The notes: generated by a model not told the origin, from the sequence alone. A stretch of 64,000 bases of DNA from an uncultured bacterium (GCA_964617625.1 CAZTZL010000001.1:9783-73782); one strand, 5' to 3'. Shown: positions 18,257 through 55,694, counted from the first letter of the stretch. A program made the numbers and translations.

Positions 18257-18261
18257 AGAAA

Positions 18262-19032
18262 ATGATGGTAATGGAAATAATCGTAGTCGGTACATTGGGT
18301 TTGATTTTAGGAAGTTTTTTCAATGTACTAATTTACAGAATGCCAAAAGGTCTTTCAATTGTTCGACCTGGATCGCATTGCACCTCGTGTGGTCAGCCTG
18401 TAAAATTCTATGACAATATTCCGGTGTTAAGTTATATTTTGCTTAAAGGGCGATGCCGATCCTGTCATGCATCTTTTTCCTGGCGTTATCCAGCAGTTGA
18501 ATTGTTGACTGCATTTTGTCTTGTATCTGTGTTTTTAAAATACGGGTGGTCCAATCAAACCATTGCTTATGGTGTGCTTGTCCTATTTTTAATTCCAATC
18601 AGTTTTATCGATATCGATAATGGATTGATATTAAACAGATTGACGATTCCCGGTTTCATTTTGGGGATGGTTCTCATGATAGGGTTACAAATTGAAATAT
18701 GGTATATGGTTATAGCGGGGGCGCTGTTTGGAGGATTTTTGATTTTGGCGATTTCTTTTCTCGGGAAATTGTTATTTCGCAAGGAAAGCATGGGAATGGG
18801 GGATTTGAAACTCCTTGTTATGATTGGTGTTTACGTTGGATTTCCGAAAACAGCTCTGTGTTTGTTTTATGGAGTTTTTATAGCAGCACTGTTTATTTTT
18901 TACGGAATAATTTTTAAAAAAGTACGTATTGGTGACACAATCCCATTTGGTCCGTTTATTGCAATAGGCACTCTCGTGCATTTGCTGTTTGGTGAGCTCA
19001 TTATTAGCAAATATTTGGAGCTTTTTAGATAA
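18262..19032 (+). CDS. pilD: Prepilin peptidase (A24 family)
   Basis: It carries the Zn-binding tetracysteine CTSCGQP...CRSC and two Asp boxes (IDIDNGLILN and GMGDLKLL), with a polytopic membrane profile. A likely start ATG at 18262 lies just after the upstream stop at 18254-18256. The track ORF starts at 18166 inside the previous gene. Confidence 0.85.
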   Translation: MMVMEIIVVGTLGLILGSFFNVLIYRMPKGLSIVRPGSHCTSCGQPVKFYDNIPVLSYILLKGRCRSCHASFSWRYPAVELLTAFCLVSVFLKYGWSNQTIAYGVLVLFLIPISFIDIDNGLILNRLTIPGFILGMVLMIGLQIEIWYMVIAGALFGGFLILAISFLGKLLFRKESMGMGDLKLLVMIGVYVGFPKTALCLFYGVFIAALFIFYGIIFKKVRIGDTIPFGPFIAIGTLVHLLFGELIISKYLELFR

Positions 19033-19040
19033 ACAGTGAT

Positions 19041-19511
19041 GTGCAGGGAGGCTGGAGGGTCAGCCCAGAGATGGAAATTCAGGATGAAGTAAAAGATGCT
19101 CTTGTAACAAATACTCTACAAAGTGATGTTTTGGAAGGCGACGGAAGAAAGCAAATACTGGTTGTGGATGATGATCCTTTGATTGTTAAAATTCTTCGAG
19201 AACCTTTGGAAAGAGAGGGGTACAGTGTTCGAGTAGCTTCTCACGGTCTGGAAGCTCTCCAGGAAGTAAAAACTAATCGTCCGGATTTGATTATTCTCGA
19301 TATTTTAATGCCGATGCTCGATGGATTTAAAGTGGCTCGATTATTAAAATTTGATAAACGTTTCAAAGATATTCCAATCATTGTATTGACTTCACGTGCG
19401 ACAGAAGGAGAACGGAAAATGGGGCAACAGGTAGGGGCGAATGAATTCCTCTATAAGCCATTCCGTTATCCTCAGGTTTTGGACGTGGTAAGAAGGTATT
19501 TGGATGCCTGA
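19041..19511 (+). CDS. Single-domain response regulator (CheY/PilH-like receiver)
   Basis: Receiver motifs include ILVVDDDP, the phospho-accepting D in IILDILMP and LTSRAT...K. No output domain is present. It sits between pilD and pilB. Confidence 0.8.
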   Translation: MQGGWRVSPEMEIQDEVKDALVTNTLQSDVLEGDGRKQILVVDDDPLIVKILREPLEREGYSVRVASHGLEALQEVKTNRPDLIILDILMPMLDGFKVARLLKFDKRFKDIPIIVLTSRATEGERKMGQQVGANEFLYKPFRYPQVLDVVRRYLDA

Positions 19512-21282: not shown

Positions 21283-21306
21283 ACAGAACAAAGGATAAAC
21301 CGAACA

Positions 21307-22512
21307 ATGCCATCTTATGAATACAAAGCTGTCACACCGACAGGAGAAATTGTTAACGAAGTACTGGAAGCAGCCAACGAACAGACCGTTTCCAAAGAAA
21401 TTTACCATAAGGGATACCGGCCGGTTTCGATAAAAATGCGAAAAGAGGGAAAGTCGGAGAGCAGCGGACTTTTTACAAAAAAAATCAAAGCCGATGAAAT
21501 CATTCTTTTCACACGTGAACTGGTTACGCTTCTGCGTGCCGGCGTTCCCATGCTCACCGCACTGGAAGCGCTCAGCTCCCAGAGCAGCAAAATGATGGGG
21601 GATGTGCTGAATCAGGTTTATGTCGATGTCATGTCGGGTAAAAGTTTTTCCCAGGCGCTGGACAAACATCCCAAGGTTTTTTCGAAACTTTATGTAAACT
21701 CGGTGTATGCCGGCGAAATGAGTGGTGCCCTTGATGAGGTTCTGGAGCGAATGGCATCTGTATTGAAACATGATGAGGAAACCAGTAAAAAAGTAAAGTC
21801 GGCCATGAAGTATCCGATCTTTGTTCTCAGTGCGATGGTTGTCGCGTTTATTGTGATCATGGCGGTGGTTGTTCCCAAGTTTACTACGATTTTCGATAGT
21901 ATGAATATGGAACTGCCCCTGCCAACAAAGATGCTTCTGGGAACGAGTAATTTTATCAAAAGTAATGTGATCGCCATTTTTGTGGTTGTGGTAGGGGGTG
22001 TTATCGGAATGACTACGTTTGTCAAGACCAAGAAGGGACGGTTCTGGTGGGACGGTTTTATCATGAAAATTCCTCTCATCGGTCCTCTCGCCTCCAAGAG
22101 TTCCATGGCCCGTTTCACAAAAATGTTCGAGACGCTGAACCGAAGCGGCCTCCCTATTCTCCAGACACTCACGACGGTATCAACCGCGGTAGGCAACACG
22201 GTTATAGAAAAAAGTATCAGGAATGTGGCAGTTGGTGTTGAGAAAGGTGGAGGTATTGCCGGTTCCATGAAAAAATTCGATCTGTTTCCTCCAATGGTTA
22301 TTCGCATGATTTCAATCGGGGAACAGTCAGGTTCGCTGGACGATATGCTGAAAAGCATTGCGAACCATTATGACATGGAAGTGGAATATGCGATTAAAGG
22401 GTTGACTACGATGATCGAACCACTGCTCACTATCGTTATGGCCGCAGCGGTGACCGTCCTGGCACTTGGTATTTTTCTGCCCATGTGGGGTATGGTGGGA
22501 GTGCTGAAATGA
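21307..22512 (+). CDS. pilC: Type IV pilus inner-membrane platform protein PilC (GspF family)
   Basis: 401 aa with duplicated GspF domains and three TM segments. The N-terminus reads MPSYEYKAVTPTGEIVNEVLEAANEQ. Confidence 0.9.
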   Translation: MPSYEYKAVTPTGEIVNEVLEAANEQTVSKEIYHKGYRPVSIKMRKEGKSESSGLFTKKIKADEIILFTRELVTLLRAGVPMLTALEALSSQSSKMMGDVLNQVYVDVMSGKSFSQALDKHPKVFSKLYVNSVYAGEMSGALDEVLERMASVLKHDEETSKKVKSAMKYPIFVLSAMVVAFIVIMAVVVPKFTTIFDSMNMELPLPTKMLLGTSNFIKSNVIAIFVVVVGGVIGMTTFVKTKKGRFWWDGFIMKIPLIGPLASKSSMARFTKMFETLNRSGLPILQTLTTVSTAVGNTVIEKSIRNVAVGVEKGGGIAGSMKKFDLFPPMVIRMISIGEQSGSLDDMLKSIANHYDMEVEYAIKGLTTMIEPLLTIVMAAAVTVLALGIFLPMWGMVGVLK

Positions 22513-22680
22513 TCAGCTGATGGATAAACTTTTTTACAATACAGGAATTTGTAAAATATCAGAATGTAAAGAAAATACAGGAAGGTGGTGATAGTAAAAA
22601 TCGGTTAAACAAAGAAGGATGAGTGTTTAAAGAAGGAAATTTTATACAACTTGCAAATTCTCATGAAAGGAGAAGAAATC

Positions 22681-23019
22681 ATGAAAACACGTTCCCAAAG
22701 AGGCTTTACACTGGTCGAACTGATCGTTGTGATCGTCATCATCGGCATTCTGGCCGCAGTGGCTATTCCAAAGTTTATCAGTGCGACGGGTGCAGCGAAA
22801 GTGGCTGCCTGCCGGTCCAATCAGATGAACATCGAAACAGCCGTTAAATTCAAGCTGGCCGTGGATACGGCAGCAGATCCTGCAGCCACACCGGAAACCA
22901 GTCTTGCTAATCTTGTACCGGCCTATCTGCCTACAACGCCGGCTTGTCCGGAGAGCGGGACCTATTCACTGGGTTCCGATGGCGCCTGTTCCTGTTCGGT
23001 TGCAGCACATTCAAGATAA
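22681..23019 (+). CDS. pilA: Type IVa major pilin
   Basis: A class III signal peptide with an 8-aa leader reads MKTRSQRG|FTLVELIVVIVIIGILAAVAIP, with Glu at +5. The SD aaaggagaag lies 5 nt upstream. The C-terminal region is Cys-rich (4 Cys). The track ORF is longer, starting at 22651. Confidence 0.85.
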   Translation: MKTRSQRGFTLVELIVVIVIIGILAAVAIPKFISATGAAKVAACRSNQMNIETAVKFKLAVDTAADPAATPETSLANLVPAYLPTTPACPESGTYSLGSDGACSCSVAAHSR

Positions 23020-23080
23020 TATCTTGAAATCAGAAAAATGACCTGGAATGGGTTTTTACATTCCGGGTTGTCTGGATCAT

Positions 23081-23130
23081 TTTACGGAGAGGGTGAGATG
23101 CAGAACCGCCCTCTCCGTAAAGATTTTTTG
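23081..23130 (+). terminator. Rho-independent terminator downstream of pilA
   Basis: TTTACGGAGAGGG-(15 nt loop)-CCCTCTCCGTAAA forms a 13-bp perfect stem. It is followed by GATTTTTTGG. Confidence 0.8.
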
Positions 23131-23186
23131 GAGTTATCCAATTTAGGAAATGAGTAAAGTGAATTGGTCTTTCAAGGAGAGTATCG

Positions 23187-23738
23187 ATGAAAATCAGTAA
23201 GGAAAAAAAGTCTCTCCGTTCAAGAAAAGGATTTACACTCATTGAATTGATTGTCGTGATTACGGCTGTGGCCTTTTTGACCGGTGTGGTCGGGGTGAAT
23301 GTGCAGCATACAAATCAGCAGACAACGATATTCAATGCAGCCAATAAAGCACTTGCCGATTTGCGATATGCGGAAGAAGTGGCCATGACCACACACCGCA
23401 GGGTCGATTTCATTGTTAATCAGGGTGCGAATAAGTACGAAGTAAAATACCACTCTGATGGAACATATGTCAAATCATCGACTTCGGATGATGACGACCT
23501 GATCGTACAACTGGGTTCAGGAATATCCAGCGGTGTTACGATTACGTCTTCGGCAACCGGCAATACATTGTCGTTTATGGAATGGGGCGAACCGGCTTTG
23601 AATGGAGCCACTTTTACAGGCGAACGGTCTGTAGCGCGTTTTAACTCGCATATGCATCTCATTATTGTAGAATCGGGATATGCCTATCTGGCTGAAGAAG
23701 TCGGGGGTTCAGGATGCGGATTTACAATATGCCATTAA
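23187..23738 (+). CDS. Minor pilin / pseudopilin (FimT/GspH-like)
   Basis: A prepilin leader reads MKISKEKKSLRSRKG|FTLIELIVVITAVAFLTGVV, with Glu at +5. Confidence 0.7.
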   Translation: MKISKEKKSLRSRKGFTLIELIVVITAVAFLTGVVGVNVQHTNQQTTIFNAANKALADLRYAEEVAMTTHRRVDFIVNQGANKYEVKYHSDGTYVKSSTSDDDDLIVQLGSGISSGVTITSSATGNTLSFMEWGEPALNGATFTGERSVARFNSHMHLIIVESGYAYLAEEVGGSGCGFTICH

Positions 23739-24157
23739 AAAAACAGATTTGTCAATGTGCCGGCGAGAAGGGTTTTTCACTTGTCGAAGTGATTGTCATT
23801 ATTCTGATTCTCAGTATTGCGATTATTCCTTTGAGTCGGCTTGCAATCGGCAACATAGATGCCGGTCGTACTTATAGTCTGATTTCGCGGGGCACATTAT
23901 ACGCACAGGAAATCATGGAGAGAATCATTGCCGATTATGTTGCAGAATTGGAAGACAGCCAGGGGTACGACTGGGTAAAAAGCAACTGGCCCGGTACTGT
24001 TTCCGGCTCCCCCACAGGATTCACAGGCAATGTCGATATTTCAAGTGAAACAACGGTCAACAGCGTGACGTATGTCACGGTTACGGTTACTGTGAGCGCG
24101 AACGATATGCCGGATATCGTTCTGTCCACATGGCTGGTTGATCATGTCTTTGAATAA
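23729..24157 (+). CDS. Minor pilin (PilV-like)
   Basis: A prepilin leader reads MPLKKQICQCAGEKG|FSLVEVIVIILILSIAIIPL. The track ORF starts at 23714. It overlaps the preceding gene. Confidence 0.65.
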   Translation: MPLKKQICQCAGEKGFSLVEVIVIILILSIAIIPLSRLAIGNIDAGRTYSLISRGTLYAQEIMERIIADYVAELEDSQGYDWVKSNWPGTVSGSPTGFTGNVDISSETTVNSVTYVTVTVTVSANDMPDIVLSTWLVDHVFE

Positions 24158-24173
24158 CACAGCGGAGAGGATC

Positions 24174-24686
24174 ATGCCATCCGAATTAAAAAACAAGCAA
24201 TCCGGCTACACGCTGATCGAACTGGTTGTCGTTCTTCTTTTGACCGGTATTCTGATTGCAGCCGTTACGCCTTTTGTTGCCACCAATGTGGAGGCCTATA
24301 TGAAAATGAGGGTGGCAAAAAATATTGCACAGGGAGCGCGTGTGGGACTGCTTCGCATGACTGAAGAATTAAAAAGAGCGACCACTATCACTCGCTGCCG
24401 TTCGGACGAAATTGGATTTCGTTTTCAACCCCCAACTGGGTCCAATCGCGCTGTTACATACAGTGAATATCATGGCGCTCTCATGCGGGATGACGGCGGG
24501 GGCGATCAGCCGATGATTTACCCGATACAGAGTTTTAATCTCACGTATTATGATTCCAACGACAATACGACGTCTACTAAATCATATGTCAGGCGTATTC
24601 GAATAAAAATGGATGTAGGTCCCCCAGAATTCATGACCAGTATCCAAACCCAGGTTACTTTGCGAAATATATTTACAGGTAGTTAA
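24174..24686 (+). CDS. Minor pilin (PilW/GspJ-like)
   Basis: A prepilin leader reads MPSELKNKQSG|YTLIELVVVLLLTGILIAAV. The track ORF starts at 24138. Confidence 0.65.
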   Translation: MPSELKNKQSGYTLIELVVVLLLTGILIAAVTPFVATNVEAYMKMRVAKNIAQGARVGLLRMTEELKRATTITRCRSDEIGFRFQPPTGSNRAVTYSEYHGALMRDDGGGDQPMIYPIQSFNLTYYDSNDNTTSTKSYVRRIRIKMDVGPPEFMTSIQTQVTLRNIFTGS

Positions 24687-24891
24687 TAGTAAACAGGTGA
24701 ATGTATTTGGATTCAATATAAGTTTGGTTTTTAATATTCACTACTACACCGAACCTTGTAAAGAAACTGTTCCCATATTGAATTACCATTTCATTATTTG
24801 ATAGATCCGGAATCACATTTAAGATGGCAGGCCAATATTGAAATTGGAAATATTTAGAAGGTTAACTTTTTTAGCATAGAAGGAGGCGGCA

Positions 24892-25821
24892 ATGAAGAAG
24901 CAGACACTAAAAAGGCTGAGAAAGGAAGAGGGCTTTTTCTCCGCTTTCGTGCTGGTTTTTCTGGTGACACTGGGTCTCATGGGGATTGGAGCCTCCATGT
25001 TGTTACAGAGTGAAAGCAAGAATGTCATTAATCAAATGAACTCCGTAAGAGCCGATTATTTGATGGAAAGCGCCGCTTTTTACAGCACGGCCGCCCTCTC
25101 GGCAGGAACACTGACGAGCGACACAAGTTTTACAATCGGAAGTATCGATGTGGAAGTGGATACATTTTATGACGCCGGGACAATGATCATGGAAGTAACG
25201 GTGACTATTGATGAAGGACGTACCAGAACAATTCTGTTTGAAATGAAAGAAAATCCGATCTGGAGAAGGTCGATTTTCGTATCTGGATCTATCGACGCCA
25301 ATGTCACTACGAAAGATTCCAATAATGTTGTTGATGACGACTTGAAGGTCGCCAATAGGAGCCCCATGCCGCAAGTGAACAATTCGACATTAACCAGTAT
25401 GGCCGCTTCTCAGGGCCACGAAAAAGGCGGGCCGTGGACTGCAACAGATGATTATCCAAGTACCAGTTTTTACCGGTCTGGAAATACACCCAATGTCACA
25501 CATGTTTATGGAGATATGTATGTGAATGCCAATATAGATATCCACGGCATTTTTATAGTGGATGGGAATGTATATCTGGACAGAAGAGCACATGTTCAAG
25601 CCGTGCTCTATCTTCCCAATTCAGGTACAAAGGTAGAGGCTAACAGTAGTAGTTCAAATCGATTTGATCCGAATGTTCTGGGCGGCATTTACGGATTCGG
25701 GGAAGTGACTGTAGTCAGTTCCAAAACATTATATGTCCGGCATGAACCGGAATGGATGCGTGTTTTTTCACAATATGTGAATGGCGGTGATGGTACAAAA
25801 ATTGCACATTGGTCTTATTAG
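24892..25821 (+). CDS. PilX-like pilus assembly protein (non-canonical pseudopilin)
   Basis: A basic leader and hydrophobic helix read MKKQTLKRLRKEEG|FFSAFVLVFLVTLGLMGIGASML. 309 aa. No Glu at +5. Position and length match PilX/GspK-like. Confidence 0.45.
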   Translation: MKKQTLKRLRKEEGFFSAFVLVFLVTLGLMGIGASMLLQSESKNVINQMNSVRADYLMESAAFYSTAALSAGTLTSDTSFTIGSIDVEVDTFYDAGTMIMEVTVTIDEGRTRTILFEMKENPIWRRSIFVSGSIDANVTTKDSNNVVDDDLKVANRSPMPQVNNSTLTSMAASQGHEKGGPWTATDDYPSTSFYRSGNTPNVTHVYGDMYVNANIDIHGIFIVDGNVYLDRRAHVQAVLYLPNSGTKVEANSSSSNRFDPNVLGGIYGFGEVTVVSSKTLYVRHEPEWMRVFSQYVNGGDGTKIAHWSY

Positions 25822-25849
25822 TGAAATTTAGGTTAAAACTATTGCAAAA

Positions 25850-27589
25850 ATGAAAAGTTTTACATTAAATACATCAAAACCGTGGGTCAATGTTCTTGGG
25901 CTCGATATGGGCCTCGACAACATGAAGTATGTCCTGCTGAACCGCAAAGGCTCCAAGCTCATTGTCGAGGGATTCGGTCGCGCTTCTTTTACAACAAAAG
26001 GATCTGAATTTTCAGAAGACGCTGTCTACCAGGCTTTGCGGCATCTATTTCAAAAAGGAACGAAACTCAAACAGACTAAAATTGTGCTCGGGATTGACGG
26101 CTCCAGAGTTGTGGTCCACCGGGACAGTTTCCCGCAGCTTGCAAAAAAAGATTTGCTTCAGTCCATTCTTTTCGAATTGAAAAGAGAAATGGGGAAAGAG
26201 AATGAAGATACAGGCGAGATTGTATATAATTACAAAACCATAGGGAACGATCCCAAAACCCCCGGCAATATCGAATATCTGACAATGGGTATGCCGGCTG
26301 ATGAAATCGAAGGCAGAATTCAGTATTTTATCCACGAAAGAGTTGTTCCTCATAAAGTTGTGCCCAATATCGTGGGAATGAAAAACTTTCTGGAATTGAT
26401 ACCCAAAAAGGAAAGAGCCGGTACGATCGGTATTCTGGATATTGGCGCACAGCGAAGTATGCTTGTCATTTTCCGAAATGGACAATTGGATTTCTTTCGT
26501 GAAATTGTTGTCGGCGGTGAAGATTTTACAAAGGCCATCACCGGGACGATTTTTCATGAGGGACGGGCAATTCAGTTTACAGAAGATGAAGCCCTCGAAT
26601 TCAAAGTGAAATACGGATATCCGCTTGGGTTTTCAGAAGGAATGACTTATCGGGGTGCTCCGCTTACTGAAGTAGGCGCAATGATGCGCCCTGTCCTCGA
26701 ACGTTTGGCGGGTGAAATTCACCGTTCGATTGGATTCTACGGAGATAAAACGGCTGGTGACAAGGTGCAGAATATCTATCTTATTGGCGGCGGTTCCCGA
26801 ATGAAGCATCTTTCGCAAGTGTTAATGGAAAAAATTGAGATCCCCGTCGCTTCATTGCCCTATTTCAAAAATATCCGGGTTGTCGGAAGCAAAGAACAGC
26901 AAAATACTTTTCAAAAAAGATATCTTGAACAGGCGGCCAGTCTTGCAATGGCAATGGAAACCAATACGGAAGGAAGCCTGCTGCCTCTTCCCTATAAAAG
27001 GATTCATACATTCAATTCGTTAAACAAAACCTTCCAGTTTGTTGCAGGCATTATTTTTATAATCATACTGTCCGTTTATTGGAATGCAAGCCATGAACTT
27101 GGTTCTCTTAAAAAACGTCTGGGTATGATGGAAGCCAGGGCATTAAAATCGAAGAACAGCGGTAAAATGTATGCCACTTTGCAAACACAGAAAAATATTT
27201 TGGAAAATAAAATTAACAATATGGAAGGCAAAATACAACAGGATGAATATTTGATTCCAGTTCTTCGACTTGTTTCGCATTCGATTCCTGAAAAGTTGGC
27301 TCTTCTTTCTTTTACATATGAACAGGAGAAAGTTGATCAAAAAAATGAACCCGTTTCAAGGAAAAAAGGGAAGAAAGAAGTCGAAGAAACACCCCAGCAG
27401 CCAAAATGGGTTGTTGAGATGAAGGGTATGAGTGATGTAAAAACACCGGATGTAAAAATTTATCTCGCACAATTTATCCTCAAGCTTGAGAGTTCTGCCT
27501 ATTTCGATGACATCAAACTGGTCAACGAAGTCGACGCGAGTGAAGAAAATCCGTATGAATTTGAACTTGTGGGATATTTAAATCGGTAA
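25850..27589 (+). CDS. pilMN: Fused PilM-PilN (actin-like cytoplasmic ATPase-fold domain + TM + coiled-coil/periplasmic PilN-like domain)
   Basis: 579 aa. The N-terminal ~380 aa show PilM/FtsA-like motifs (LGLDMGLDNMKY...; ILDIGAQRSMLVIF...; IYLIGGGSRM). A TM helix (FQFVAGIIFIIILSVYWNA) sits at residue ~400. A coiled-coil and ~150-aa domain follow, typical of PilN. Confidence 0.75.
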   Translation: MKSFTLNTSKPWVNVLGLDMGLDNMKYVLLNRKGSKLIVEGFGRASFTTKGSEFSEDAVYQALRHLFQKGTKLKQTKIVLGIDGSRVVVHRDSFPQLAKKDLLQSILFELKREMGKENEDTGEIVYNYKTIGNDPKTPGNIEYLTMGMPADEIEGRIQYFIHERVVPHKVVPNIVGMKNFLELIPKKERAGTIGILDIGAQRSMLVIFRNGQLDFFREIVVGGEDFTKAITGTIFHEGRAIQFTEDEALEFKVKYGYPLGFSEGMTYRGAPLTEVGAMMRPVLERLAGEIHRSIGFYGDKTAGDKVQNIYLIGGGSRMKHLSQVLMEKIEIPVASLPYFKNIRVVGSKEQQNTFQKRYLEQAASLAMAMETNTEGSLLPLPYKRIHTFNSLNKTFQFVAGIIFIIILSVYWNASHELGSLKKRLGMMEARALKSKNSGKMYATLQTQKNILENKINNMEGKIQQDEYLIPVLRLVSHSIPEKLALLSFTYEQEKVDQKNEPVSRKKGKKEVEETPQQPKWVVEMKGMSDVKTPDVKIYLAQFILKLESSAYFDDIKLVNEVDASEENPYEFELVGYLNR

Positions 27590-27594
27590 CGAAT

Positions 27595-28194
27595 ATGAAT
27601 AAATCTCAGTTAAAAATATTTGTTTTGCCTTTGGCAACCATTATTCTTTTTTTTGTATGGCTGGGTGTTTTCTATATGCCCGTGACCCGTGATAAAAAAC
27701 AATTAGAGAAAAAATGGGAATTACTGCAAAATCAGATCAAAAGTGAAGTTCCTGAATCCCGATTGGAAAGCATGAAAACATTTGTAGACAGCCTGTTCGC
27801 ATACATCGACGTTCGCGAAGAACACTTTTATCCTGTAGAAAATTTATTGGATCTTGGACGCTCGATTGATAAAATCGGAAAACAATATGGTCTTACGCTT
27901 ATTTCAATTTCACCTGGTTATGAAAGTCTCGCATTAATACAGAAAGCAGATGAGGGCGTAATAGAGTTGCCGCTTACCTTGGAATTTTCCGGGTCTTTTA
28001 TTCAGTTTGCAAAATTTATAGAATCAGTTCCGGATTTTCCGTATGTCATGAGAATCAACGAAGTATCTCTATATAAAGAATCAGAGGAACAACTTACTCT
28101 TACCGCGAATGCCAAAGGGGTAATTGTATTGAGGAAGGAGAGCATCAATGAAGATGCCATAAAAAACAAGAAAGAGATTCATAACAAGGTCTAA
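27595..28194 (+). CDS. pilO: Type IV pilus alignment protein PilO
   Basis: 199 aa with an N-terminal TM helix, a coiled-coil and a periplasmic domain. It lies immediately after pilMN. Confidence 0.65.
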   Translation: MNKSQLKIFVLPLATIILFFVWLGVFYMPVTRDKKQLEKKWELLQNQIKSEVPESRLESMKTFVDSLFAYIDVREEHFYPVENLLDLGRSIDKIGKQYGLTLISISPGYESLALIQKADEGVIELPLTLEFSGSFIQFAKFIESVPDFPYVMRINEVSLYKESEEQLTLTANAKGVIVLRKESINEDAIKNKKEIHNKV

Positions 28195-28233
28195 TCAATA
28201 AATTGATATTGATAATGGCCTACGGAGGACTTT

Positions 28234-31200
28234 ATGCGAAATCTGAGCCCAGCGAATAAACTGCTGATCTCATTCTGTGTTATACTCCCGGTGCTGTGTC
28301 TTTTTTGGTGTACATGCTCACAAAAAAGTCCGATGGATCCCACCAGTTCCCTACATAAAGATATCCCCATTTTGGTCGATATTCAGGCTTCTCCAAGTCA
28401 AATTGCTGTAGGTGAATCCCAATCTATCATACGTGTTCGTTTATTGGATAAAGATGGCAAACCTCTTGTCAATGAAGTTATTACATTCAGCACTTCCCTG
28501 GGAACGGTAACTACTGAAGCAACAACCGATGCCAATGGCTGGGCGCAATCGGTTTTTATCAGCGGGCAGGAAGTCGGAAATGCAAAAATTACTGCACAAT
28601 ATTCTGACAGGGCCTCTTCTGCCGTTATCGTGAATGTTATTTCACAATTGGATGCAAGGATCCGGCTTAGTGCGCAATTCGATGCAATTTATGCAAACGG
28701 AGTTGATGGAACCGATATTTATATTACGCTTTCGCCCGATGCAATGGACAGCAGCGGAGTGGTATCGCTCACAACATCGGCAGGTGTGATCGATTCTTAT
28801 ATAGAAATCAATGGCGAAACCAATTCTGTCAAGCTGATCAGTATCGCGAGTTCAAGAGATACCACCGCTGTAGTCACAGCCACATGGGGCGCATACTCGG
28901 CAGTGGTGACGGTTAAATTTAAGGGCATTCAGTTTTTTGTCGAATCACAATACAGTGAGCTTCCTCCTGACGGGAAAAGCAAAACCGCCATTATGGCGTA
29001 TGTAAAAGAAACAACAACACAAATAGGAGTCGAAGATCAGGAAATACGTTTTGGGACCTCAATCGGAAGCATCCCTTCTTCGGGAAAAACAGAGAATACA
29101 GGAATTGCCAGTGTAGATTTAACAAGTGGAACGATCGAAGGGATAGCGAATATTGTTGCGCGATATGGCGCCACATTTTTAGATACGGTGCAAGTGGAAT
29201 TTACGAGATCAAAATACTATTTTGACATCACAAGTGCATCAAACGCAATCCGTGCTAACGGCGAAGAAAGCAGCACAATTTCTGTTTCTGTGAAAGACCA
29301 GAACGGATATCCGGTCAGTGATGCTATGGTCCGGTTTGGAACCACAGTCGGAAGTATTGATTCCATTAAATTAACCAATAGTTCAGGAACAGCGGAAGCC
29401 ACTCTGATGAGTGCACCAAGTACTGCGGACCAGTGGGCGATAGTATCAGCCGTTGTGGATAGTGCCAGTAAAACAACCCAGGTATTGATGAAAGGTATTT
29501 TATTTGACCTTCAGGCGACGCCGACATATATAATTGCAGATGGTAAAAGCAAATCTGATGTCAAAGTGTTTTTAAAAGAGGTAACGACAGGTATCGGGAT
29601 TCCTGGTGCTTCTATTCGACTGGGTACGAATCTGGGTTCTATTCCCTCTGCAGTTACAACGGACCAGCAAGGTTTTGTGCAGATTCAATTAACCAGCAGT
29701 ACAACTCAGGGTCTGTCCAGGGTGCTTGGAGAGTATGGAAATATTCTCAAAGATTCTGTGTTTGTTCAATTTGGATCGATGGTTTCCCACAAATTAAAGC
29801 AGATCAAGGTTGAACCATCATCCTTGCTCGCCAATGGCGTGGATCAATCTTCAGTGAGCGCCTATGTGGAAGATGGAAATGGAGATCCGGTTTCCAAGGT
29901 GATTGTATCGTTTCAGACAAATTCAGGCAAAATTGAAAGTCAAGCCTTGACAGATGCAAACGGGCTGGCCACAGTTAAATTTACACCTCATGCGAGTCCC
30001 TTTGACAGCATCGCATCTGTTGCGGCTATTCTCGATACACAGATGGTTTCTACAATAATTAGAAGTGTCGGGGTTCAAGTGGATTTGTCGGCAACACCGG
30101 AAAGTATACTGGCTGACGGAAAAAGCACATCAAAAATAAAAGCCGTTTTGAAAGAGACCACCAGAAAGATAGCTATTCCCGAAGCGACTGTTTATTTCGG
30201 AACGGATCTGGGAACGATTGCCTATCAGGCGCAAACCAATACGCAGGGAGTGGCTACTGTCGATTTGACGAGTGGTACTCAGACAGGAACGGCACATGTG
30301 AAAGTTCGTTACGGTCAGGTCCTTGAAGACAGTGTCGAAGTTGTTTTTCAGGAATCCCAGCCGACCTATATCACTCTTTCAGCAACGCCTGCATTTATAA
30401 CGGCAGACAATCAGAGCCAAGCCACAATCAAAGCAGTTGTTTCCGATGCCAGTTGGAACCCGGTTGCGGATGGAACCATGGTTCAGTTTATTATTGTAGA
30501 AGGCACCGGCTCGATAGGCTCACAACAAATTACACAAAATGGGATTGCATTTACTTATTTGACAAGCGGCTCTTCTCCGGATACAGCTAAAATTATTGCC
30601 CGTGTCGGCAGTTTAATCTCGGATACTGTGAAAGTAATCTATACAATCGGCAATGTGGAAAATGTAGCTGTTTCTGTGAATCCCAATACAATTCCTGCGG
30701 ATGGTGTCACAAAAAGCGCCGTACAAGCTTCCGTAACGGATGCTTTGGGCCATCCCGTTGAAAATGTGTCCGTCAATTTTACGGCTACAATCGGCAAGAT
30801 CGGAATCAGCGCCAGAACCGATGAAAATGGGATTGCCAGTGTAGAATTTTCAAGTACGGTGATTGGATTATCGACTATCACAGCACAGGTCCTGTCGGAT
30901 GGTAAGACGATATCAGGTACTTCAATTATTCAGATACTTCCCGGCAGTCCCTATTATGTTATTGTCTCTTATTCACCATTATTTGTCTACGTCCGGGACT
31001 GCGGTAAACATCAAACCGTGTCGGTTTACGCGGATATCCGGGATGAAAAGAACAATCCCGTTGCAGACGGCACCTATGTCAAGTTTTCAATAATCGCATC
31101 GCCGGGATACGGAGATTCTCTCAGTACGGTCGAACCAGTGCCAACCGTGGGCGGTATCTCTCAGGTTTCGTACACCAGCGGGACACGGTCAGGGACAGCC

Positions 31201-32136
31201 CGGATCAAAGCCCAGGTCACAGACGGAGACGGCAATCCGCTCATTCCGGAAGTCGCCGGGACATCCACTGAATTCGTGATTTATTCAGGGCCGCCGTATA
31301 TCGAAGATATTTACGATCCATCATCGACCCATTTGACAATAACGGCTTCAAGTTTAAATACCTGGTCATGGCTGGGCTCGGACAGTATCTCCATTCTTGT
31401 CGGGGATAAGTACAACAATCCTGTTCAAAAAGGAACGGCCGTTTATCTGACCGCTTCTAGCGGTGTTGTGACCACGACGGCCTATACGGATACCAATGGT
31501 ATCGCGAATGTAATTTGGACTGGTGGCAATCCGACTCCGACCATCGACCGGTTTTACAATTATACGGGAATGCAGGATCCGAATACAGGCGCACAGATTG
31601 GTGACCATGTTTCTGATCCGCGCATACCGAATATGGAATATGATCCGGAACTTGGCAGAGGACGTGTGATCAATACCAAAGGAGATTATGGCGAGAATGA
31701 TGGTATAGCACGATTAATTGCCTGGACACAAGGAGTCGATGAAAACAATCAGTCGGCAAAACCCTGGGCCGAACTCCAGGTGATCTGGTCGAAAACCATT
31801 GCTCATTTTGAACAGACCACGTACAAGGATACGATCTGGCCCGGAGAATATGCCCGTATACGTTTTGAATTGTGGGACGCAAACGGCAATCCTGTTGTCA
31901 GCGGATCCGAGCTGACCGCCAGTGTCGAACCAAGCACTGCCAAAGCCGAACTTTCCTGGACGAGCCAGATAACTTATGATCCGGGTCAGTGCTATTACAA
32001 TTTATATGTTTATAATGTGATAGATATCACCAAGGATGAAGATCGGCCGGGATGGATGCGTGTGATGATCAGTGTATCCAGTGTGAATGGAGGCGGATAC
32101 ATTTATTCTGATGAAATTTATCTGGCCAAAGATTAA
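28234..32136 (+). CDS. Large secreted/lipoprotein with ~10 tandem Big_1 (invasin/intimin-type Ig-like) domains, embedded in the pilus operon
   Basis: 1300 aa. The signal peptide with Cys reads LLISFCVILPVLCLFWCTCS. Repeats of ~95 aa match the Big_1 pattern (A.P..I.ADG.S.S.I.A.V.D..GNPV....V.F....G......T.TD.NG.A.V.L.S....G...V.A). A non-repeat C-terminal region of ~400 aa follows. Confidence 0.8.
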   Translation: MRNLSPANKLLISFCVILPVLCLFWCTCSQKSPMDPTSSLHKDIPILVDIQASPSQIAVGESQSIIRVRLLDKDGKPLVNEVITFSTSLGTVTTEATTDANGWAQSVFISGQEVGNAKITAQYSDRASSAVIVNVISQLDARIRLSAQFDAIYANGVDGTDIYITLSPDAMDSSGVVSLTTSAGVIDSYIEINGETNSVKLISIASSRDTTAVVTATWGAYSAVVTVKFKGIQFFVESQYSELPPDGKSKTAIMAYVKETTTQIGVEDQEIRFGTSIGSIPSSGKTENTGIASVDLTSGTIEGIANIVARYGATFLDTVQVEFTRSKYYFDITSASNAIRANGEESSTISVSVKDQNGYPVSDAMVRFGTTVGSIDSIKLTNSSGTAEATLMSAPSTADQWAIVSAVVDSASKTTQVLMKGILFDLQATPTYIIADGKSKSDVKVFLKEVTTGIGIPGASIRLGTNLGSIPSAVTTDQQGFVQIQLTSSTTQGLSRVLGEYGNILKDSVFVQFGSMVSHKLKQIKVEPSSLLANGVDQSSVSAYVEDGNGDPVSKVIVSFQTNSGKIESQALTDANGLATVKFTPHASPFDSIASVAAILDTQMVSTIIRSVGVQVDLSATPESILADGKSTSKIKAVLKETTRKIAIPEATVYFGTDLGTIAYQAQTNTQGVATVDLTSGTQTGTAHVKVRYGQVLEDSVEVVFQESQPTYITLSATPAFITADNQSQATIKAVVSDASWNPVADGTMVQFIIVEGTGSIGSQQITQNGIAFTYLTSGSSPDTAKIIARVGSLISDTVKVIYTIGNVENVAVSVNPNTIPADGVTKSAVQASVTDALGHPVENVSVNFTATIGKIGISARTDENGIASVEFSSTVIGLSTITAQVLSDGKTISGTSIIQILPGSPYYVIVSYSPLFVYVRDCGKHQTVSVYADIRDEKNNPVADGTYVKFSIIASPGYGDSLSTVEPVPTVGGISQVSYTSGTRSGTARIKAQVTDGDGNPLIPEVAGTSTEFVIYSGPPYIEDIYDPSSTHLTITASSLNTWSWLGSDSISILVGDKYNNPVQKGTAVYLTASSGVVTTTAYTDTNGIANVIWTGGNPTPTIDRFYNYTGMQDPNTGAQIGDHVSDPRIPNMEYDPELGRGRVINTKGDYGENDGIARLIAWTQGVDENNQSAKPWAELQVIWSKTIAHFEQTTYKDTIWPGEYARIRFELWDANGNPVVSGSELTASVEPSTAKAELSWTSQITYDPGQCYYNLYVYNVIDITKDEDRPGWMRVMISVSSVNGGGYIYSDEIYLAKD

Positions 32137-32157
32137 AAATCCTAATGGAGTTTTGAA

Positions 32158-32922
32158 ATGAAAATAGTAAAATGGATGTTTTGTCTGCTTTGGATTGTTA
32201 CTTTCTCCTATTTGCATGCCCAAATTGCGGGTAATCCAGTCGAAGCAAAAGGCGAAAGCGAATGGACCATCAGCGCTGCCGGCAGTTATGTCGATATGGG
32301 ATTGGGTCAGGAACAAGTGTCTTCTCATCGTATTTTGATTAAAAGCAGCTGGGGAATCACCGATCGGATCGATATTTATGGACTCATCGGAATGGTTCAT
32401 TTGCATATGGGGATCAATCAGGAAAATGTATCGGATTATGAAGGGGAATATGAATTTGGCTATGGAGTGGGTTTTAATATGATTTTAAAACCTGTCTCGG
32501 ATATAAATCGAATGGGGTTCTGGTGCGGAGCACAAGTATTGCGGTTTCCTTCAAATGGAAAATTTGTCGAATCGACTCAATTGGCCAACTATGAATATGA
32601 TATGAAATATGACTGGAAGGAAGTTCATGTCTATCTCGGCATCGTCTATCCTTATCAGCATTTCCGTTTTTATGCAGCGGCTGCCGGCTATTTGATTCAG
32701 AGAAATGATACGAAACAGGAATTCATTGTGTATGGCGATGAGAGAACATACTGGGGTGAAGTTAAAGATGTCTATCGAAGCGGATTATGGACAGGAGCCA
32801 TTCTGGGAGTTGAACTTAATCTGGCGAATCGATTTGCTCTCAGCCTCGAGGGGCTCATTTTTAATACTCAAAATTATCAAATAAAAATAGGAATTTGTCA
32901 GACTGGGAGTGAAGGATGGTAG
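32158..32922 (+). CDS. Small outer-membrane beta-barrel protein (OmpW/OmpA-like 8-10 strand barrel)
   Basis: 254 aa with a signal peptide (...FSYLHA|QIAG). Hydrophobic and polar residues alternate in strands, and aromatic girdle residues are present. The C-terminal residue is aromatic (W). Confidence 0.55.
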   Translation: MKIVKWMFCLLWIVTFSYLHAQIAGNPVEAKGESEWTISAAGSYVDMGLGQEQVSSHRILIKSSWGITDRIDIYGLIGMVHLHMGINQENVSDYEGEYEFGYGVGFNMILKPVSDINRMGFWCGAQVLRFPSNGKFVESTQLANYEYDMKYDWKEVHVYLGIVYPYQHFRFYAAAAGYLIQRNDTKQEFIVYGDERTYWGEVKDVYRSGLWTGAILGVELNLANRFALSLEGLIFNTQNYQIKIGICQTGSEGW

Positions 32923-33040
32923 CATCCAATTTATATTGTATGTGGAACAAAAATTCATCAATAAAGATCGATCTTGTCCATTCTGGACCGAAGATTATGA
33001 TAAAGTGGATTGAATTGTTTGTGAAATGAGGTTTTAATTA

Positions 33041-33520
33041 ATGGCGCTGAAAAAAAGCGAAAAACGTATGCTAATCATCCTTGCGGGCGTCGTGGCTGTT
33101 GCCGGGATATTCAAGCTGATTGATAAGCCAAAAAATGTGAAGCCGGTTCCGGCAATTAATCAAAACCATCCGATCCAGACTCCCGGACAAGTGCTCCCGC
33201 CGCAAACCCAGGTACAATCTGCCAATGCAAACAGCAGTAAAAAAATTGTTAAATTTAAAAAATATGATTCATGGGGAAGGGATCCGTTTACGATTGTGAA
33301 GCCGCCTCCGCCGCCTAAAAAGATACCCCCGATGAAAATCGATGTGGTATTGAAAGGCATATTTTGGGAAGCAGGTAAAGCCTATGTATTAATCGATGAC
33401 TATGTGCTGAGTGAAGGTGAAGAGGAGGGTGGTATCAAAGTTGAAAAAATAGAAGGGAAGAATGTTATTTGTCGAAAAGGAGGCCGTCAATTCACTTTAC
33501 AATGGAGAGAAACATCATGA
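33041..33520 (+). CDS. pilP: Type IV pilus assembly protein PilP-like
   Basis: 159 aa with an N-terminal TM/signal anchor and a Pro-rich linker (PPPPKKIPP). An RDPF motif is present. The C-terminal beta-domain reads LKGIFWEAGKAYVLIDDYVLSEGEEEGGIKVEKIEGKNVI. Its stop overlaps the pilQ start (ATGA). Confidence 0.65.
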   Translation: MALKKSEKRMLIILAGVVAVAGIFKLIDKPKNVKPVPAINQNHPIQTPGQVLPPQTQVQSANANSSKKIVKFKKYDSWGRDPFTIVKPPPPPKKIPPMKIDVVLKGIFWEAGKAYVLIDDYVLSEGEEEGGIKVEKIEGKNVICRKGGRQFTLQWRETS

Positions 33521-35760
33521 AATGGAAAAATAGTCCTTTGAGACGAATAGCTCTGTTGGGATGGCTTTTCCTCTTTATTCCAATGCTTTTTGGTGAAGCC
33601 AACCTGCTTTCAATTAAAAAGGGAAAAGAAGGAGATAAGTGCTGGGCTATTTTCTCTTTTAACGAAAATGCACAATGGATTGGTATCTCCCAAAAAGAGG
33701 GTGAAAAGTTATGCCTCTATTTTTCAGGAATGGCAGGTCAAATGGATGGTCAAACCATTCAATTGGATGCATCCAAAGGGAAAATGATTACCATTAAGCA
33801 GATGACGAAAAATCCCCCCATTTTTAGAGCAGATCTGCACTATGATGGTGAGGAACCACTGGCTGTTTTAAAAAAGAATAAAAACCTGGTAATAGGTTTA
33901 AACGATCAGCAATTGCTTGAAGGGAAAATGACCGGGTTTGATGAAACCATCCAGCCTCCAGGCCGCTTGGTTAAAGTCACTCCGGAATATTCTGGTAAAA
34001 AAGTAACGACTTCTCTTCAGTTTGACGGAACGTATGATTGGGTAGGATATATCAGACCGTCCATTGATGAAGCCTTTCTGCTTATCCGGGGTGCAAAACT
34101 GTTTACGGGCGACCATGATTTTTCATTTGAAGAAGGGCCGCTTCAAACCATGAAATTATCTTCACAGAATGATGGAGATAAAGGTGTTAAGGCGGCAATG
34201 TACTTTGCTCCCCTTTCTTCATTTTCAATTGTACAGAAAGATGAAAATCTGATGATACAAACACCACATGTAAAAACAAGCGTGCCTGAAAAAGAAGAAG
34301 AATCATTCGCAACGGTTGAAAAAGAAGAATCAACACCGCCGGCAGACGTTCCGTCCGTTCCGGTTGTTGGTGAAGTCCCAGCTGAAATAAAAAAAGAAAT
34401 TGAACCGGAAAAACAAGCTGAAAATAATCAATCCTTTCAGGAAGAAAAACCTCTACAAATTCAAACGACAAATGAACAGGAATCAAAAGAAATCTCTCCT
34501 CAAGAGGAAGAATCAACGGATCAAATTAACTGGGACAGACGAGTATCATTTAAATTTCATTCAACCCCGATAAAAAGCGCGCTTCGGCTTTTGGCTTCCT
34601 CCAACAATTTGAATATGGTCATTGGAGAAGGTGTAGACGGACAGGTTACGATGAATTTGGAAAATGTGACACTGAAACAAGCGCTTGATATGATTGTTCA
34701 TGTGAATAATTGTGATTATGTCATGGATGATAATATCATCACCATCCGACCTGTTGCAATGGCTTTTACGGGAGGACGGATTACAAAAGTCTATCGGTTA
34801 AAATATGCGGATGCATTTAATGTAGCCGGCGTTGTAAGAAAAATTGTAACCAACGACACGCTGGTCGAAGTATTTCATCCGGAATTTCTGAATTTTCTTG
34901 AGGCGGGCAAGAATCGGATGCAAACCAATAAAGTTGCTGTGCAGGGAATTCGAAGATCAAGTACACTGGTGGTAACAGACCGGCCCGAAAAAATCAGGGA
35001 GGTGGATGTTGTTATTGCTGAACTTGATCGTGCTCCCATTCAAATTATGATAGAATCCAAACTGGTCGAGTTGGCACCCAATTCCAGTGATAAAATGGGA
35101 ATTGATTGGGATAAGACATTGTCAGCTCAATTGTGGAATCAGATGAAAGTCGGAGATGATAAACTGGATTATTCGCTGATTAATAGGGGTACTGACAAGT
35201 TAGGTGATTGGAAAATGGGTTATCTTTCAGCGGGACAGTACAATGTTATTCTTGATTTTCTGAAATCAAAAACAGATTCCAAACTTGTTTCCAATCCGCG
35301 TATTCTTGCTCTGGATAATGAGGAATCTTCGATCAGTGTCGGAACCACCGTTCCCGTGCCGCAAATTCAGAGAGGATCGGCAGGAAATTCCGATATGGTC
35401 ACTTTTGAGTATAAGGAAGTGAATATCCAGTTAAATGTGACGCCGCATGCTGATGATAATGATAAAATCACCATGTATGTAAATCCGGTCATCGAAGAAA
35501 TTACCGGATGGGTTGAATATGATCAGAACAGAGCGCCTGTTACCGACAAGAGATCTGTGAACAGTATTGTCACTGTAAAGAATGGTGAAACTGTCGTCAT
35601 AGGCGGGCTTATTAAAACTCAGAGAATCGAAACGGTTAGAAAAGTCTGGCTGCTTGGCAGTTTGCCTCTTTTTGGAAAGCTGTTTCAGCATAAAGAAGTT
35701 GATGACAGGCAAACAGATCTGATGATCTTCATTACACCAACAATAATAAATATGGGATAG
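33517..35760 (+). CDS. pilQ: Type IV pilus secretin PilQ
   Basis: The secretin C-domain reads ...VVIGGLIKTQRIETVRKVWLLGSLPLFGKLFQHKEVDDRQTDLMIFITPTII. Upstream it has N0/N1-type domains (VYRLKYADAFNVAGVVRKIV) and AMIN-like N-terminal domains. An E/P-rich linker is present. The start ATG at 33517 overlaps the pilP stop. The track ORF starts at 33469. Confidence 0.9.
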   Translation: MKWKNSPLRRIALLGWLFLFIPMLFGEANLLSIKKGKEGDKCWAIFSFNENAQWIGISQKEGEKLCLYFSGMAGQMDGQTIQLDASKGKMITIKQMTKNPPIFRADLHYDGEEPLAVLKKNKNLVIGLNDQQLLEGKMTGFDETIQPPGRLVKVTPEYSGKKVTTSLQFDGTYDWVGYIRPSIDEAFLLIRGAKLFTGDHDFSFEEGPLQTMKLSSQNDGDKGVKAAMYFAPLSSFSIVQKDENLMIQTPHVKTSVPEKEEESFATVEKEESTPPADVPSVPVVGEVPAEIKKEIEPEKQAENNQSFQEEKPLQIQTTNEQESKEISPQEEESTDQINWDRRVSFKFHSTPIKSALRLLASSNNLNMVIGEGVDGQVTMNLENVTLKQALDMIVHVNNCDYVMDDNIITIRPVAMAFTGGRITKVYRLKYADAFNVAGVVRKIVTNDTLVEVFHPEFLNFLEAGKNRMQTNKVAVQGIRRSSTLVVTDRPEKIREVDVVIAELDRAPIQIMIESKLVELAPNSSDKMGIDWDKTLSAQLWNQMKVGDDKLDYSLINRGTDKLGDWKMGYLSAGQYNVILDFLKSKTDSKLVSNPRILALDNEESSISVGTTVPVPQIQRGSAGNSDMVTFEYKEVNIQLNVTPHADDNDKITMYVNPVIEEITGWVEYDQNRAPVTDKRSVNSIVTVKNGETVVIGGLIKTQRIETVRKVWLLGSLPLFGKLFQHKEVDDRQTDLMIFITPTIINMG

Positions 35761-35763
35761 AAT

Positions 35764-36867
35764 ATGATTGGAAGGGAGCAGATCAATCAATTACTTGCAC
35801 ATGCAGTAAAGAATAACGCATCCGATATTCATTTATGTGAGGCCTATCCACCAATCGTCCGGATCGACGGCAAATTGGTTCCACTGAAAGGCAAAATCCT
35901 GACCAAACAGGATATGGAAGATATAATCGTTCAGCTGTTGGATGATTATCAAATGGAGAGATTCAGGAAAGATCTCGAAATTGATTTTGGATATGCCGTA
36001 CCCGGACTGGCTCATTTCAGAACAAATGCTTTTACAAAATTGGGAGGATTTGGCCTCGCTTTTCGAATTATTCCCGATCAAATACGAAGTTTGGAAGAGC
36101 TGGGTATGCCCGAAGGTGTGATTCGTCTTGCAAAGGAATTCGAGGGTCTTGTACTGGTTACCGGACCGACAGGGCACGGTAAATCAACGACTTTGGCCGG
36201 AATGATCAAGCTTATGAACGATGAACGTCATTCGCATATCATTACTGTAGAAGATCCTATTGAATATAGTTACAAACGCAAAAACTGTTTGATTCAACAA
36301 AGAGAATTGGGACATCATACAAGATCTTTTGCAGCTGCTTTAAAGAGTGCACTCAGGGAAGATCCTGATGTCATCCTGGTCGGAGAAATGAGAGATTTGG
36401 AAACAATATCGTTGGCACTCACCGCTGCAGAAACCGGGCATTTGGTTCTTTCCACATTGCATACAAGAGATGCTCCGGATACAGTGAATCGAATTATTGA
36501 TGTTTTTCCTGCGGGACAACAAGGGCAGGTTTTGGCACAAATTGCAGGTTCATTGCTGGGAGTGGTTTCACAACGATTGCTTCCTACTGCTTCTGGTTCT
36601 GGAAGAGTGGCTGCGGTTGAAGTTTTGTTGGCGAATTCGGCGGTTAGAAATCTTATTCGTGAGAAAAAGATACATCAAATTCCATCGATCATGCAAACAG
36701 CAACGACAGTGGGAATGCAGACAATGGATGACAGTCTTCTGCAATTGGTACGAGACAATAAAATAACGCGGCAAATTGCCATTAAATATGCTAAAGAACC
36801 CGAGAGATTCCTGCCAAAATTTAATACCGAAAATAAAAAACGTTTCGTAAAAAAAGAAACGATTTAA
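35764..36867 (+). CDS. pilT: Twitching motility retraction ATPase PilT
   Basis: 367 aa with no N-terminal T2SE_N domain. Walker A reads GPTGHGKSTT. The N-terminus is PilT-like (...DIHLCEAYPPIVRIDGKLVPL). Confidence 0.9.
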   Translation: MIGREQINQLLAHAVKNNASDIHLCEAYPPIVRIDGKLVPLKGKILTKQDMEDIIVQLLDDYQMERFRKDLEIDFGYAVPGLAHFRTNAFTKLGGFGLAFRIIPDQIRSLEELGMPEGVIRLAKEFEGLVLVTGPTGHGKSTTLAGMIKLMNDERHSHIITVEDPIEYSYKRKNCLIQQRELGHHTRSFAAALKSALREDPDVILVGEMRDLETISLALTAAETGHLVLSTLHTRDAPDTVNRIIDVFPAGQQGQVLAQIAGSLLGVVSQRLLPTASGSGRVAAVEVLLANSAVRNLIREKKIHQIPSIMQTATTVGMQTMDDSLLQLVRDNKITRQIAIKYAKEPERFLPKFNTENKKRFVKKETI

Positions 36868-36889
36868 TTAATAAAACTTTATGAAGAAT

Positions 36890-36934
36890 AAAATGTGAGT
36901 GTAAGAAAACACTTGCATTTTATTTTTTATTTTG
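36890..36934 (+). terminator. Putative rho-independent terminator after pilT
   Basis: The imperfect hairpin AAAATGTGAGTG-(8 nt)-CACTTGCATTTT has 2 mismatches. A T-run ATTTTTTATTTTG follows. Confidence 0.45.
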
Positions 36935-43442: not shown

Positions 43443-43450
43443 GCTACAAC

Positions 43451-44986: not shown

Positions 44987-45049
44987 TAGGAGCACGTATG
45001 GTTTTTTAAATTATTAAAATGAAGATGCAAATAAAGAGAGGGTTACGGT

Positions 45050-45580: not shown

Positions 45581-45637
45581 GAAAACAGGGATTACTGTAA
45601 AATTGAATTATATTGTAAAAAAAACGAAAGGTGAATC

Positions 45638-55693: not shown

Positions 55694-55694
55694 G

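Follow-up and report, generated by a model that had tools for sequence, protein, structure and literature searches.

Why does a type IVa pilus (T4aP) operon carry two structural genes of unexplained role between pilO and pilP? To our knowledge, canonical T4aP pilMNOPQ operons have no such inserted genes. The question is raised by a 64,000-nt stretch of DNA from an uncultured bacterium (GCA_964617625.1, CAZTZL010000001.1:9783-73782), called the window here, with positions counted from its first letter. The first inserted gene encodes a 1300-aa protein built of Big_1-type immunoglobulin (Ig) domains and the second a 254-aa predicted outer-membrane beta-barrel; the NCBI annotation names them 'invasin domain 3-containing protein' and 'hypothetical protein'. 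Our best explanation, at a probability of roughly 0.5, is that the pair is a conserved accessory module of a T4aP machine resembling a type II secretion system (T2SS), in which the Big_1 protein would be a surface-displayed lipoprotein stalk or adhesin and the barrel its membrane partner. Literature searches returned no published description of this arrangement. The pair and its closest neighbours are the following.

25850-27589, + strand: PilM-PilN fusion, 579 aa (PilM_2, E 2e-22, residues 17-367; TIGR01175 pilM)
27595-28194, + strand: PilO, 199 aa (Pfam PilO, E 1e-8, exceeds the gathering score)
28234-32136, + strand: Big_1-repeat protein, probable lipoprotein, 1300 aa
32158-32922, + strand: predicted outer-membrane beta-barrel, 254 aa
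33041-33520, + strand: PilP-like protein, 159 aa (by position, directly before and overlapping pilQ)
33517-35760, + strand: PilQ secretin, 747 aa from the ATG at 33517 (Secretin, E 1e-44, with STN and Secretin_N; TIGR02515, E 5e-69)
35764-36867, + strand: PilT retraction ATPase, 367 aa (TIGR01420 pilT_fam, E 4e-140, exceeds the cutoff; Pfam T2SSE)
36882-36929, + strand: terminator-like hairpin with a T tract (20-pair stem, then TTTTGT)

Open reading frame (ORF) calls reproduce the gene positions and lengths of the first-pass annotation, as well as its intergenic gaps of 39 nt (pilO to Big_1), 21 nt (Big_1 to barrel) and 118 nt (barrel to pilP). The 747-aa PilQ product is identical in the JGI gene call.

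Whether the insertion is incidental was to be decided, according to that annotation, by gene order in relatives. A scan with a PilM-N alignment, keeping one genome per species, gave 18 related loci, all from uncultured metagenome-assembled genomes (MAGs), whose gene content was mapped with tblastn and ORF calls. Wherever the contig is long enough, the order is PilX-like, PilM-N, PilO, Big_1, barrel, PilP-like, PilQ, PilT. Both genes lie between pilO and pilP in 12/12 related loci that reach the barrel position, and none of these lacks the pair; in a thirteenth locus the contig ends inside the Big_1 gene. Because the arrangement recurs in every related locus examined, it is, as judged by gene order, far beyond chance, and the insertion is not incidental. 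The Big_1-to-barrel gap is short in every locus and the barrel-to-pilP gap varies from -35 to +235 nt.

These loci, which we call lineage 1, are far from uniform: PilM-N identity to the window is 37-87%, barrel identity goes down to 32%, and GC content of the loci ranges from 33 to 61%. In the nearest relative, identities are 87% for PilM-N, 79% for PilO, 85% for Big_1, 75% for the barrel, 82% for the PilP-like protein and 82% for PilQ. Since the pair diverges about as fast as PilM-N, PilO, PilP and PilQ, this indicates that it was inherited vertically with the machine genes. The Big_1 gene has a GC content of 0.476, slightly above its flanks (0.40-0.43). A recent insertion or horizontal transfer is ruled out by the synteny across loci of 33-61% GC and by divergence parallel to that of the machine genes.

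Two side observations concern single loci and one the whole set. For the secretin of L015 (= L005) the gene calls give two ORFs, 206 aa and 613 aa (7251-9709); either the N-terminal region is truly separate from the secretin core, or the assembly has a frameshift. In L020 (7487-11580) the Big_1 gene shifts reading frame near 8965-9070, which is an assembly error or a pseudogene. The PilM-PilN fusion (25850-27589) has a GspL-like architecture and is fused in 18/18 related loci.

A second lineage keeps the pair at another place. In L033, L036, L037 and L038/L039, all from high-GC genomes, the order is pilM and pilN (unfused), pilO, PilP-like, pilQ, Big_1 lipoprotein (479-1018 aa) and barrel; a fifth contig starts inside its Big_1 gene, and the adjacent Big_1-barrel pair alone is visible. 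The barrels of this lineage form a subgroup 19% identical to the window barrel (profile E about 1e-50). A third order is found in the MAG of L032, where the pair is placed behind a PilX-like minor pilin gene with no pilMNOPQ nearby. As far as gene calls can tell, the Big_1 and barrel genes are always adjacent and stand with type IV pilus (T4P) genes in three gene orders, a statement that covers about 18 distinct loci from a family of 143 barrel cluster representatives. Linkage kept through three gene orders in very divergent lineages is therefore not chance.

More distant homologues are placed otherwise. A Balneolales Big_1 lipoprotein of the same general build (L028) is solitary, with no pilus genes near, and so is a borderline barrel homologue (P0182, E 1e-4). 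A Bacteroidota MAG (L030, 1228-11998) has a cluster of T2SSF, two T2SSE ATPases, a 530-aa and a 294-aa protein without Pfam match, and a 416-aa secretin; directly behind the secretin lies a 665-aa Big_1/CarboxypepD_reg lipoprotein similar to the window protein in its C-terminal Ig domains, and no barrel gene comes after it.

The first-pass annotation also took the pair to belong with the pilus machinery and to be transcribed with it, and the operon signals agree. The two genes are likely co-transcribed with pilMN-pilO and pilP-pilQ-pilT, because the gaps are short, no strong terminator is internal and promoter matches are at background. Between 18000 and 37500 the + strand has a single strong terminator, the hairpin at 36882-36929, where the operon probably ends; the internal terminator-like hairpins of this strand have stems of 5-6 pairs and are weak. 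Promoter-like sites show no enrichment (51 vs 43.6 +/- 6.1 in shuffles). The Big_1, barrel and 159-aa genes each have a purine-rich Shine-Dalgarno-like motif 4-9 nt upstream of the ATG, and the pilQ start shares an ATGA with the stop codon of the 159-aa gene. A transcription unit of the pair's own is made improbable by a promoter scan at noise level and only weak internal hairpins.

What, then, are the two proteins? Pfam matches the 1300-aa protein as nine Big_1 and eight Invasin_D3 stretches (E about 1e-83), in line with the invasin/intimin type first assigned to it; the original count of about 10 tandem domains was too low. A purpose-built repeat hidden Markov model (HMM) finds 12 Ig domains, and the total is about 12-13, with Ig-like folds to the C-terminal end. 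Across orthologues, by the same HMM and ORF mapping, the number of Ig domains runs from 3 to 16 and the length from 479 to 1696 aa. Shorter orthologues align with the C-terminal portion of the window protein, which is thus the conserved end. It forms a conserved head of four domains that carries a structured insertion of ~55 aa; AlphaFold2 models the C-terminal 400 aa as all beta and Ig-like, with a predicted local distance difference test score (pLDDT) of 93.8 and a predicted template modelling score (pTM) of 0.79. In structure comparison, the Ig folds resemble the passengers of surface adhesins (intimin, FdeC, invasin and InvD).

Within residues ~230-900 (window 29100-31000), Ig domains of an 'ADGKS...LKETT' type appear to alternate with those of an 'ANGVD...D.NG.PV' type. 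This alternation of two sequence types suggests that the stalk grew through duplication of two-domain units.

At the other end, the Cys-containing signal peptide that had been noted before proved to be conserved. Cys28 lies in a lipobox-like W-x-[AT]-C-[ST] in 16/16 orthologues compared, and because every orthologue keeps this context the Big_1 protein is probably a lipoprotein. After Cys28 the window protein reads SQKSPMDP, and its conserved post-Cys motif is CSQKSPMDPTSS. The motif generalizes to C-[ST]-Q-K-x-P-x-D-P-T in lineage 1; the lineage 2 motif is C-x-x-x-G-x-V-N-P. Pfam finds no LysM, vWA or beta-propeller (Neisseria_PilC) domain and no pilin-like N-terminus in the Big_1 protein, nor vWA or Neisseria_PilC in the barrel. 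Neither Pfam nor NCBIfam matches the Big_1 protein to a TPR or pilotin family, and neither it nor the barrel has a significant NCBIfam match (a single spurious FxLYD_dom, E 0.009).

For the 254-aa protein, the early prediction of an outer-membrane barrel was borne out by a 10-stranded AlphaFold2 model, in which several strands span 20-28 residues (pLDDT 76, pTM 0.71). Its closest structural neighbour is OmpT, followed by Legionella MOMP and autotransporter beta-domains. The signal peptide and, in the model, a closed antiparallel barrel with an even strand number agree with the definition of the Pfam MBB clan; Pfam matches are weak (OMP_b-brl and Legionella_OMP). IAT_beta matches no member of the barrel family, and membership among the inverse autotransporters is ruled out: this is a separate 10-stranded barrel without IAT_beta similarity, not the intimin/invasin barrel.

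The barrel family is small, with 143 matches at E<=1e-3 among 1.84 billion cluster representatives (HMMER), nearly all of ~250 aa. Its members share A-Q-x-x-G-N-P at the mature N-terminus and G-[IV]-[CS]-Q-T-G at the C-terminus, which in the window barrel read Q-I-A-G-N-P and G-I-C-Q-T-G. Because both termini are conserved family-wide, which is unusual for small barrels, they suggest contact with a partner.

The call of the 159-aa gene as pilP is a different matter. Its stop does overlap the pilQ start as first described; the identity rests on position, since Pfam PilP does not match and no family scores above threshold. In an alignment of 12 orthologues the protein has an N-terminal transmembrane anchor without lipobox, a Pro-rich linker and, at its C-terminus, a small beta domain that is conserved. 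Weak T2SSB matches occur in 6/12 orthologues (best E 0.004) and a T2SSC match in one, and a PDB sequence search with the PilP-like profile gave no match. The positional equivalent in lineage 2 has a weak PilP match (E 0.0019). The T2SSB and T2SSC matches give weak support to a PilP or GspC/GspB-like role.

How would such a pair work beside a pilus? We propose that the Big_1 lipoprotein and its dedicated barrel form one outer-membrane complex, with the Ig chain projecting from the cell surface as an adhesin or spacer of variable length that is produced together with the pilus. The Big_1 protein would be held at the surface through its N-terminal lipid plus the barrel, which may serve as an anchor or as a translocator for the conserved N-terminal linker. 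The post-Cys segment of the lipoprotein and the GNP N-terminus of the barrel suggest a point of contact, because these conserved stretches would both be located on the periplasmic side of the outer membrane. Two export routes can be imagined: the barrel could carry the N-terminal linker across the membrane, like a split or two-partner inverse autotransporter, or the lipoprotein could pass via the adjacent PilQ secretin, as InvL does with a T2SS. The range of 3 to 16 Ig domains parallels that of surface stalks.

Several points weigh against surface display. Strings of Ig-like domains occur also in periplasmic lipoproteins such as bacterial alpha-2-macroglobulins, and the Big_1 protein has sub-threshold Pfam matches to MG4 and bMG3. 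It carries no lectin-like tip, its C-terminus being Ig-like throughout. The lumen of a 10-stranded barrel is narrow for threading a polypeptide, and the post-Cys motif is unlike the GGG or ND(N/D) sorting motifs of T2SS substrates. Unlike many exposed antigens, the Big_1 protein is conserved to the same degree as the machine parts, with 85% identity in the closest pair of genomes. What the data establish is gene content, the kept linkage, the lipobox, the folds and the varying repeat number; co-transcription, surface exposure, an adhesive role and the binding of the two proteins to each other or to the secretin are inferred.

Known systems offer partial parallels on both routes. InvL of Acinetobacter baumannii, like PulA and SslE, is a surface lipoprotein exported by a T2SS. 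It is invasin-like and barrel-less, and to reach the surface it requires the secretin GspD (PMC9245377) as well as a sorting motif behind the lipobox Cys, GGG or ND(N/D) (PMC12802150). The Big_1 protein likewise combines invasin-like domains and a lipoprotein signal with the absence of a fused beta-barrel; its gene lies inside a T2SS-like T4P operon, and it too has a conserved motif after the Cys. It differs from InvL in size (1300 aa and ~13 Ig domains vs 492 aa), in its post-Cys sequence and in the barrel that is always co-encoded here, and Pfam scans found no GspN (AsmA-like) family member among the cluster genes. The machine itself has PilT and PilM-N-O and is hence T4aP-type rather than a T2SS. 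A lipobox on a barrel-less protein is thus present, whereas the P2'-P4' sorting motif and GspN are absent, and membership among T2SS lipoprotein substrates cannot be shown; by analogy, a possible mechanism may resemble those of InvL and the inverse autotransporters.

Inverse autotransporters (type Ve: intimin, invasin, FdeC) share the passenger-type Big_1/Invasin_D3 domains, and in their two-partner variants, such as ZirT/ZirS, an outer-membrane barrel gene likewise adjoins the gene of an Ig-repeat protein. Inverse-autotransporter barrels with separately encoded Ig-like substrates have been described (PMC4943183). The window barrel differs in that it has 10 predicted strands and is encoded as a 254-aa protein of its own, whereas the IAT barrel is 12-stranded and fused. 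Its Ig partner is a probable lipoprotein within a pilus operon, without the LysM and lectin tip that are common, not universal, in inverse autotransporters.

Pilus operons also provide comparisons. Canonical T4aP operons (Pseudomonas, Myxococcus, Neisseria) and Thermus pilMNOWQ share the order PilM, PilN, PilO, PilP-like, PilQ with PilT adjacent; the window differs by its PilM-PilN fusion, by the transmembrane anchor of its PilP-like protein and by the two inserted genes. Akkermansia has a T4P-like cluster, Amuc_1098-1102, with lineage-specific envelope proteins between a PilM-like gene and the secretin, and the window PilM-N and PilQ have sub-threshold NCBIfam matches to the Amuc_1101 and Amuc_1098 families. 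Amuc_1100, an outer-membrane protein of the Akkermansia cluster, is not known to have Big_1 repeats or to form a barrel.

Against this background, the rival that survives best keeps the Ig chain in the periplasm: as structural accessories, the two proteins would aid the insertion of PilQ into the outer membrane or its fixation there, serving as pilotin, stabiliser or cage, or would tether the machine to the envelope. We regard this as possible, though less likely than surface display. The position of the pair favours it, between the alignment-complex genes and pilP-pilQ or, in lineage 2, directly behind pilQ, as does the related lipoprotein behind the Bacteroidota secretin of L030, which lies in a T2SS/T4P-like cluster. 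Pfam scans found no TPR-type pilotin in the pilus cluster, the Big_1 protein is as conserved as machine parts, and the top neighbours of the barrel include a Legionella porin whose PDB title makes it part of the Dot/Icm machine. Known pilotins (PilF/PilW/Tgl of TPR type; GspS/AspS), however, are small lipoproteins with a TPR or alpha/beta fold and do not consist of Ig strings; the Big_1 protein shares their lipoprotein signal, yet is a 1300-aa chain of Ig domains that matches no TPR or pilotin family. The role of pilotin or stabiliser, among those first proposed, is possible, but the protein is unlike the pilotins known. A range of 3 to 16 Ig domains ill fits a fixed periplasmic distance or ring geometry, and because of this variation the periplasm-spanning scaffold suggested earlier is disfavoured. 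The L032 pair, moreover, adjoins minor pilin genes with no pilQ nearby. Among the roles offered by the first-pass annotation, an adhesin-like stalk anchored in the outer membrane appears the best.

A bolder form of the second export route makes the pilus machine double as a secretion system: the Ig lipoprotein would be built-in cargo passing via PilQ, as InvL and PulA do via T2SS secretins, and the barrel would be a cofactor of a new kind that receives or holds the acylated N-terminus at the cell surface, in place of GspN. We find this doubtful; if true, a T4aP operon would encode both a surface lipoprotein as its cargo and a barrel dedicated to receiving it.

It is quite unlikely that the pair is a self-contained adhesin operon without mechanistic tie to the pilus, kept inside the operon by co-regulation or chance. 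Solitary distant relatives such as L028 and P0182 fit such an independent unit, and the 118-nt gap before pilP, with a weak 5-bp hairpin at the barrel stop, could hold a promoter; that gap is not length-conserved, however, promoter-like sites stay at the level of shuffled sequence, and chance is no explanation for T4P linkage in three gene orders. Least probable is a pilus-tip adhesin loaded onto the fibre with minor pilins in place of PilY1, as first suggested for want of a PilY1-type gene (none is found in the cluster or in the other large window ORFs scanned, and the L032 pair sits directly behind a PilX-like minor pilin gene): the conserved lipoprotein signal and dedicated barrel point to the membrane rather than the fibre, and the lack of vWA, beta-propeller and pilin-like N-terminus completes its dismissal.

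The rest of the pilus cluster is in keeping with a T4aP system. ORF calls, Pfam and NCBIfam place a single complete T4aP-type cluster on the + strand at 18166-36867, which begins with the following genes.

18166-19032, + strand: prepilin peptidase (Pfam A24_N_bact/Peptidase_A24)
19041-19511, + strand: REC-only response regulator (Pfam Response_reg)
19504-21282, + strand: PilB (Pfam T2SSE+MshEN)
21307-22512, + strand: PilC (Pfam T2SSF)
22651-23019, + strand: major pilin (Pfam N_methyl among the cluster pilin matches)
23187-24686, + strand: three minor pilins, one GspH-like (Pfam N_methyl, GspH)
24892-25821, + strand: PilX-like minor pilin, 309 aa (pilin-like hydrophobic N-terminus; the L032 homologue has a weak PilX_N match)

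The regulator at 19041-19511 is a stand-alone receiver domain wedged between prepilin peptidase and PilB. Right behind the major pilin gene, a weak hairpin with a T-rich tail (23062-23076) is a possible attenuator that would raise pilin expression over that of the downstream genes. Directly upstream of the cluster, 12866-18256 encodes a 1796-aa Big_5/fn3 protein with a C-terminal sorting domain of the type IX secretion system (T9SS); its ORF overlaps the listed prepilin peptidase start by ~90 nt, and the true start may therefore be later.

Downstream, a 535-aa protein with SGL/beta-propeller-like repeats and a transglutaminase-core domain (40592-42199) lies between the pilus operon and a chemosensory cluster at 43439-56819. 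The latter comprises CheR-TPR, MCP, a CheA-CheW-REC hybrid, CheB, a 1297-aa hybrid kinase that combines GAF domains with four REC domains, and one more REC protein. Because no flagellar genes are found among the scanned window ORFs, it may be a Pil-Chp/Frz-type system that controls the pilus.

Two of the related loci carry the label 'candidate division KSB1'. Because of this label and the T9SS sorting domain upstream of the cluster, the host is, by these markers, a KSB1-related member of the FCB group, an uncultured sediment bacterium. KSB1 has received the name Zhuqueibacterota (PMC11683472). Exact copies of the window genes are present in the JGI datasets 3300031552 and 3300031699 and in SRR9700623 and SRR9700626.

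What we rate as new is a T4aP operon bearing a conserved, uncharacterised two-gene envelope module. T4P machines are well studied and their pilMNOPQ core is usually taken as complete; a module kept across a KSB1-related lineage and relocated in a second points to an accessory function absent from model organisms. The barrel family is unannotated and has distinctive conserved termini, so it offers a clean marker by which similar systems can be recognised. Should the lipoprotein prove to be displayed at the surface, this compact pairing of an Ig-repeat lipoprotein with a 10-stranded barrel beside a secretin would bear on how lipoproteins reach the cell surface and would connect inverse autotransporters, T2SS-dependent lipoproteins and T4P.

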